Positions 58,011-58,548 of a stretch of 64,000 nt of DNA are shown one piece after another. The first letter of the stretch is position 1. The number at the start of each line of letters is the position of its first letter. Below the pieces are notes generated by a model. The model did no database searches. It was not told where the DNA came from and saw only the letters and a program-made list of their open reading frames with translations. The stretch is from Orbicella franksi (Eukaryota): the NCBI GenBank assembly GCA_964199315.1, contig OZ116705.1, forward strand, positions 14,322,001 through 14,386,000, given 5' to 3'. Position numbers and translations under genes: made by a program.

Positions 58011-58192
58011 ATGGGTTCGAGTCCCGCTTGTTGCGGAGTGAATATATGAACGACACACATATAAAATGAGGGTTCTGGCGCAGCGCTCACGCACACAGTG
58101 TAAGCGCAGCGCAACTCCTCATCTGAAGATTCGGAGTTGCGCTGCGCTTACACTGTGTGCGTTCGCTTGCGACCAGAACCCTCATTTTATAT

Positions 58193-58224
<32 letters not shown>

Positions 58225-58548
58225 ACGGCAGTGCTGCGTCAGAAATGTGTTGCGTGTGTTGCGTGTGGTGGGGGTCCGGGGGCTTGCACCGGTGCGTTGC
58301 GCTTATACTATGTGCGTTCGCTTACGACCAGAACCCTCACTATATGTGTGTGCGAGAACGGCAGTGCTGCGCCAGAAATGTGTTGCGTGTGTTGTGGGGG
58401 TCCGGGGGGCTTGCACCCGTGCGGGTCCAGCGAAGCTGCAACGTCTGTAATCAATATGCGCGGACGTGTCCTTCACTAGTATATACAAAAGTGCGCCAGA
58501 AAATTTTTCCTATTGGAGAAGTGCATGCTCAGTGTATACTGCGCCGAC

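Follow-up and report, generated by a model that had tools for sequence, protein, structure and literature searches.

The window analysed here, a stretch of 64,000 nucleotides from Orbicella franksi (G000:C8:14322001-14386000), raises the question of what a long fold-back hairpin is doing at the left end of a Polinton with a protein-primed-type DNA polymerase B (pPolB). The initial annotation had offered three readings, namely a hairpin-primed terminus on a pPolB element, a fold-back repair scar, or a fused Helitron-like piece. Only the first survived, in the form of a working hairpin end of a pPolB element, while the scar and the Helitron fusion did not. Judged from the sequences compared below, the hairpin tip is a real, lineage-wide new form of Polinton terminus, and a mechanism for it can be proposed.

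In the window copy the two arms (58053-58118 and 58133-58198) paired as originally described, forming a terminal imperfect palindrome of 146 nt in total, with perfect stem blocks of 26 bp (58053-58078 with 58173-58198) and 30 bp (58089-58118 with 58133-58162), a bulged stretch between them and a 14-nt tip. The DNA fold of the hairpin amounted to -79 kcal/mol (z -18.8), and none of 200 shuffled sequences was equally stable. An Rfam scan returned microRNA-type matches below threshold only, as expected of any long stem. The (GT)n tract attributed to the first direct repeat was present as (GT)13, and CACTAGT, placed about 70 nt ahead of the polymerase start codon, was separated by 68 nt from the ATG at 58549. 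The direct repeats were also present, but their register was 58138/58293 and not 58144/58299, with a spacing of 155 nt, 88% identity over 60 nt and a second copy of about 131 nt. This 155-bp direct repeat was a trait of a subfamily and not of the whole family, and other copies carried other expansions at this site. The coordinates of all features are compiled in the table.

Features of the element in the window copy (positions within the window)
Feature	Position	Strand	Remarks
Target-site duplication GAACG, 5 bp, left copy	58048..58052	+	Right end followed by the same GAACG
Left terminal inverted repeat (TIR), 505 bp	58053..58557	+	Contains both PolB start codons; right copy 99% identical
Fold-back hairpin, 146 nt	58053..58198	.	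5' start ACACACAT; from pairing and fold
Motif copy on outer arm	58073..58083	-	Motif repeated inside the TIR at 58234-58244 and 58367-58377
Bulge, outer side	58079..58088	+	Imperfect pairing with 58163-58172; extra base on the inner arm, following a CTGG motif
Hairpin tip, 14 nt	58119..58132	+	2x2 internal loop, short stem, small loop; common orientation
(GT)n tract closing the inner arm	58192..58217	+	(GT)13 in the window copy
Two direct repeats	58138..58423	+	58138-58292 and 58293-58423; part of inner arm and flank duplicated
Conserved inner TIR block	58421..58557	+	GGACGTGTCC 58462-58471, CACTAGT 58474-58480, TATATA 58480-58485
Protein-primed-type DNA polymerase B gene	58525..62325	+	In-frame stop 61075-61077 in the window copy
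Parts of PolB			Terminal-protein-like domain, loop serine 59020-59022; OTU-like cysteine box; endonuclease VII domain ~60139-60291
Retroviral-type integrase gene	62541..63359	-	Two frames in the window copy; rve Pfam match on the L030 homologue

The hairpin had been set against a plain TIR, but it proved to be the outer part of the TIR and not a substitute for one. A genome query with positions 58040-58560 gave at least 107 matches (40 of 149 candidates scored), including an inverted copy 22.8 kb away at G000:C8:14402311-14402819, which was about 99% identical (98.6% over the compared stretch). This right end, whose retrieval had been suggested as a check, carried the same hairpin within its TIR. 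The insertion target was TLDc-exon-like host DNA, of which positions 58028-58052 matched a paralogous exon at 57727-57751, and a TLD Pfam match covered 57477-57890. Directly left of the insertion site lay a very high-copy interspersed repeat (57820-58027), which had a summed depth far above that of its flanks and ended in a 25-bp inverted repeat (57953-58026). The locus was also duplicated together with its host flanks (52438-62337) 338 kb away (G000:C8:14.04 Mb; L023-L025) at 99.9% identity; the window copy differs by an additional insert of roughly 6.7 kb bounded by inverted ends (L021, approximately 1485-8217). Elsewhere in the window, positions 21508-22309 and 27376-28361 were occupied by arrays of 108-133-nt units rich in a CGATTCG motif. 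One contig from a public run spanned 57964-58094 and was not counted as independent, because it possibly derives from the source sample.

Of the hallmarks of a Polinton/Maverick, the following were found: PolB, an rve integrase, a packaging ATPase, a TIR within the 100-1500 bp range with a short-repeat end, and a target duplication. The rve match, obtained with the L030 homologue of the integrase (E 4e-7), fell slightly short of the curated cut-off. The packaging ATPase was recognized in a scan of related copies (Pox_A32, E 1.8e-7), and the same gene was present in the window element. Adjoining the ATPase was a conserved gene of 417 aa without a Pfam match, which is likely to be the capsid gene by position. 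Pfam matches to an adenovirus-like protease were absent among the 17 proteins scanned. The ORF at the right end started with the same residues as the polymerase, and the conserved inner TIR block probably serves as the promoter of the left-end and right-end genes. A bacterial promoter scan, which is ill-suited to this DNA, found nothing.

The polymerase belonged to a class that is not matched by Pfam PF03175, while its endonuclease VII domain gave a Pfam match above cut-off. Residues G157-S158-G159 and C206 were invariant in all 20 aligned polymerase pieces, which were 39-91% identical to that of the window. Both structure models showed a helix-strands-helix-strand domain; in them the serine occupies the loop that connects the long helix to the final strand, a loop modelled with low confidence (pLDDT <50 at 157-164). 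Section 6 of PMC11161782 places linking residues at the same loop position. The best viral fold matches of the polymerase were adintovirus and MELD polymerases, and bidna-type polymerases were also matched. Matches in the PDB were weak and concerned Y-family polymerases, none of them at E 0.001; a Y-family likeness is what section 7 of PMC11161782 would predict. Because the terminal-protein-like domain with its invariant serine has been kept, protein priming has likely been retained in the hairpin-tipped lineage, as far as alignments and models indicate. A match to HUH/Rep proteins or helicases was not found among the 17 proteins scanned, several of which were without assignment, and the two proteins searched in the Atlas gave no usable match. 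The endonuclease VII stretch had no PDB sequence match. Its D-H-x-H...C-N motif was common to the hairpin lineages and to relatives with AGT-type ends, which weakened the domain as a candidate marker of hairpin ends.

A census of the family was made throughout the genome. The end pattern gave 155 matches (control 0), the first 100 of which were taken on, and two tip patterns gave 49 and 29 matches. The inner TIR block was present in 85 of the 101 stretches searched, yielding 87 termini. As to whether other copies share the hairpin, the tip was kept at 86 of the 87 termini examined in this genome and cut into at one, a retention that is overstated because the set of termini was partly seeded by hairpin patterns. 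The arms were at least 80% complementary in 83 of the 86 termini, 76 of which started with ACACACAT. Stems fell into classes of 142-148 nt and 178-186 nt with differing inner sequences, and one further stem measured 98 nt. The inner (GT)n tract ranged from 0 to 26 units among termini, the outer end staying ACACACAT. When the tip patterns were taken by themselves, the inner block adjoined 71 of 78 matches; the other seven comprised six with arms and one chance match.

Left and right termini could be joined into 35 pairs spanning 7.2-22.8 kb, three of which were duplicates of others. The target duplication was an exact 5 bp in 25 pairs (in one case within an ATT run), an exact 6 bp in four, and inexact or unclear in six. 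The premise of the initial annotation, that Polintons begin with AG and make 6-bp duplications, was too narrow, since an (AC)3A end has been published for swamp-eel Mavericks in the main text of PMC8097293 and duplications of 5-8 bp are cited in that of 10.1101/2023.08.22.554363. One element (G000:C3:33429945-33444390; L267, L268), itself duplicated near C3:33.54 Mb, contained a 5,035-bp inverted duplication of 99.9% identity that spanned the polymerase, the integrase and part of the ATPase; a capsid match was not obtained there. Its ends were of two different hairpin types and were flanked by a 5-bp duplication. This element is a snap-back-like, recombinant copy.

Covariation between the arms was scored in 47 family-A termini against the window copy, excluding family B, one short stem and six termini that were duplicates. 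Among 2624 stem cells, 255 had changed on both sides and were paired, five had changed and were unpaired, and 70 had changed on one side. The 255 paired double changes compare with about 11 expected under independence (19 columns; cells count sequences, not events). The hairpin arms thus change together. In 50 of the 52 termini that could be scored, the motif on the outer arm agreed with the variant of it present in the interior of the same TIR; the motif may represent a protein-binding site.

The tip and the bulge varied in other ways. The tip had the common orientation in 78 of the 86 termini, was inverted in six and symmetric in two. In the element with termini L066 and L067 it was inverted at both ends; the TIRs of this element were 99.3% identical and flanked by a 5-bp duplication, which fits an inversion before insertion followed by copying between the ends. 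In the element L070/L071 the orientations at the two ends were discordant. At this duplicated locus the right tips of the two copies differed (L071 versus L073), showing that tip changes can arise in the chromosome. The extra base of the bulge, scored in 80 non-duplicate termini, was on the inner arm in 68, on the outer arm in one, on both arms in one and on neither in five, with five unclassified; four of the five termini without it carried another mismatch at one shared position. Tip inversion and bulge inversion never occurred together in the scored termini. The position of the bulge varied between lineages, for which a strict spacing rule is not a simple explanation.

The hairpin was also followed into 20 loci with more distant polymerases (54-64% identity). 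Nine had AC-ended hairpins of 100-137 nt with a new stem sequence (z -6.7 to -19.5 for the eight folded), four had AGT-type ends whose first 150 nt were unfolded (z -0.8 to 2.2), and seven had no assignable end. Distant lineages retain the fold while the stem sequence is replaced. Four of the distant elements were traced to their far end, which was a full TIR with hairpin in two and damaged in the other two; of the former, one had an exact 5-bp duplication and the other a duplication with a single mismatch. In a tree of 31 rows, built with no outgroup, hairpin and AGT rows were split by one branch with a support of 100/100. All hairpin lineages lay on one side of this branch and therefore represent one origin and not independent gains. 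The tip in the distant hairpin loci L122, L125, L129, L137 and L139 read GCTTCGC or nearly so on the top strand, the 3'-ending strand having GCGAAGC, which is an unusually stable DNA mini-hairpin.

No fold was seen at seven ends of six PF03175-type repeats (z -2.4 to 0.3). Neither an integrase or capsid match nor a far TIR was obtained for the AGT-ended relatives, for which reason they are an imperfect control, and the AGT-ended and PF03175-type controls are both weakened because both groups look like incomplete elements. A sister group (L130-L136, L140) had Beta-class polymerases with the endonuclease VII motif and AGT-type ends in the four of eight loci where an end was assignable; no integrase or capsid match was found nearby in the three followed downstream. 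The genome contained dozens of polymerase frames of the PF03175 type, 1300-1390 aa in length. Six such loci (among L141-L158) shared a repeat of about 5 kb with an AGTAGT end some 250-330 nt past the stop codon, the ends being set by the drop-off between copies together with the AGTAGT motif; one locus showed both ends. Within about 29 kb around these six loci there was no ATPase or capsid match, the weak integrase matches (two stretches) lay outside the repeat, and a search for TIRs found none at first thresholds. The repeat may derive from a Polinton of which only the polymerase was kept.

In metagenome contigs the pattern matched 106 stretches. A complete fold-back was found in 66 rows, some redundant and several of further types, and 19 of these 66 had a polymerase match in the same locus. 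This recurrence in independent metagenome assemblies excludes an assembly artefact. Among viral contigs the end pattern matched no stretch and the polymerase query gave no confirmed locus.

The element resembles animal Polintons/Mavericks with a Beta-class (non-PF03175) polymerase, the 'Beta adintoviruses', as described in the main texts of PMC8502044, PMC8097293 and PMC11131425, in its pPolB with an OTU-like box, rve integrase and A32-type ATPase; those elements likewise have TIRs of about 500 bp, lengths of mostly 14-18 kb and, in the swamp eel, an (AC)3A end motif. Unlike in them, each tip is here an imperfect palindrome of 100-186 nt, and duplications are mostly of 5 bp. The word 'hairpin' does not occur in the main text of these three papers or of the nematode paper 10.1101/2023.08.22.554363, nor does 'palindrom' in the main text of PMC11131425, PMC8097293 or the nematode paper. 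In the open-access passages covered, neither a terminal hairpin nor a fixed bulge was described for animal pPolB Polintons.

Halocafeteria virophages and PLVs (section 7 of 10.64898/2026.07.28.741278) also have palindromes at their TIR tips beside the target duplication, together with rve integrases, and hairpin priming has been proposed for them. Those elements belong to a protist, have a palindrome of 52 nt (in the subtype drawn) and preferentially carry non-pPolB replication genes, whereas the palindromes described here are 2-3 times longer and belong to an animal element with a pPolB and a conserved terminal-protein-like loop; the fixed bulge and the rare tip inversion are not mentioned in that section. 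Parvovirus terminal hairpins, in the part of PMC8242256 consulted, are similar in length (about 120-200 nt), in their mismatch bubble and in that some ends have a single orientation. Unlike a parvovirus, the present element is double-stranded and integrating, has its own polymerase and the same hairpin at both ends, and no Rep/NS1 was found in it. Streptomyces telomeres, as covered in parts of PMC4513846 and PMC5449611, likewise combine a terminal protein with terminal palindromes in one replicon, but they have several short packed palindromes and internal origins, whereas the palindrome of the present element is single and long and its origin lies at the end. AC ends and 5-bp duplications are thus already known, and so are terminal palindromes with proposed hairpin priming, mostly in protist elements without pPolB.

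The comparison showed that a pPolB element carries, at both ends, a conserved palindrome whose arms co-vary and whose imperfection is fixed in polarity. The Polinton model of Kapitonov and Jurka (2006) was taken as summarized in PMC4196379. We give an even chance to the explanation that both TIRs of an AC-ended Polinton lineage end in the hairpin as a conserved tip, which serves as fold-back primer and end marker, with the first strand probably still protein-primed. The terminal protein would start synthesis at the outer ACACAC origin, and the displaced single strand would fold its 3' end back over the 26 paired bases, priming the second strand and setting the exact end. The inner arm would be a second, outward-facing copy of the origin, kept inactive by the extra base of the bulge, which would keep synthesis out of host DNA and allow a single orientation to be propagated. 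The integrase would then insert the opened duplex, mostly with a 5-bp duplication; one candidate for opening the closed end is the endonuclease VII domain of the polymerase. The left-end bubble of MVM follows a logic of one active and one inactive arm, which the proposal of a disabled inner arm borrows. Against this explanation stand the nature of the evidence, which consists of contigs and integrated copies with no free or hairpin-closed molecule among them, and the AGT-ended relatives, which evidently spread without a hairpin. A variant in which the element is copied directly from the chromosome and never excised is more doubtful: extrusion of the palindrome would expose the outer origin, where the terminal protein would start, the hairpin at the other end would fix the 3' end and prime the second strand, and the bulge would pick the arm that fires.

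It is rather unlikely that the hairpin is a founder palindrome without current function, its symmetry upheld by template switching between the arms and copying between TIRs. Template switching between inverted arms homogenizes them and inverts spacers with no function needed (as described in the part of PMC8604942 consulted), and the symmetric tips (2/86), the erased bulges (L026, L060) and the tip that differs between copies of the duplicated locus (L071, L073) are what it would produce. Such switching should, however, also erase the bulge, yet one polarity persists in 68 of 80 termini; length class and end motif have persisted despite wholesale replacement of the stem, and the tip is lost at only one of 87 inner-block termini, in a search partly seeded by the hairpin. 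T4 endonuclease VII cleaves junctions and mismatches, and the endonuclease VII domain, with its Pfam match and the D-H-x-H...C-N motif in the hairpin lineages, might cut a cruciform extruded by the palindrome, whether the element is chromosomal or free, to release the element or to remove the terminal protein before integration. How Polintons shed their terminal protein is stated as unclear in PMC11161782, whose section 6 leaves its removal before integration unexplained. This cutting is unlikely all the same, since the same motif occurs in the non-folding AGT-ended relatives, imperfect as that control is, making the domain independent of the hairpin; PMC11161782, in the sections consulted, reads such domains as homing-endonuclease insertions.

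A replacement of protein priming by parvovirus-type rolling-hairpin replication is less likely still. The length, the bulge and the two tip orientations recall the parvovirus termini of PMC8242256, a similar role has been proposed for the protist virophage palindromes (section 7 of 10.64898/2026.07.28.741278), and one copy is a 5-kb inverted duplication. Terminal resolution would nevertheless lead one to expect inversion in half of the termini, while the tip was inverted in 6 of 86 and the bulge in 1 of 80, never together, all in integrated copies. The terminal-protein-like loop is moreover conserved, and HUH/Rep and helicase matches were lacking in the scans described above. Of the initial annotation, a hairpin terminus survives that is present at both ends and kept at nearly all termini; 'hairpin-primed' as a sole, parvovirus-style mode is not supported, in view of the serine invariant in 20 of 20 pieces and of inversions far below half. 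It is hardly credible that the hairpin is a one-off scar of fold-back repair, a piece of a fused Helitron or an artefact of assembly. All that speaks for these is how the window looks locally, with a palindrome close to a short stem and CTAG; both ends carry the hairpin, exact target duplications flank 29 of 35 pairs, most tip matches adjoin the Polinton inner block, and the hairpin recurs in metagenomes. The supposed Helitron end, a GGAC-GT-GTCC stem before CTAGT, belongs to the conserved inner TIR block and is not an element end: at either end of the element the CTAG stretch is embedded 420 nt deep in the TIR, followed by TATATA and the start codons, and the first residues of the right-end gene are those of the polymerase. 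This removes both the scar and the Helitron. A Helitron, which has neither TIRs nor a target duplication and closes at its 3' end with a stem-loop plus CTRR, was also rejected on the presence of TIRs and target duplications.

The finding extends terminal palindromes from protist elements mostly without pPolB to animal elements that keep it. If true, the more doubtful variant with copying out of the chromosome would amount to a hybrid of protein-primed and hairpin-primed cycles and would explain how an element with a non-excising integrase leaves the genome. The hairpin lineage bears on the exit of Polintons from the chromosome, on the restoration of their ends and on terminal-protein removal. 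Its long, polarity-fixed hairpin at each tip provides DNA of defined structure as a substrate, and the hairpin-less relatives in the same genome allow a natural comparison.
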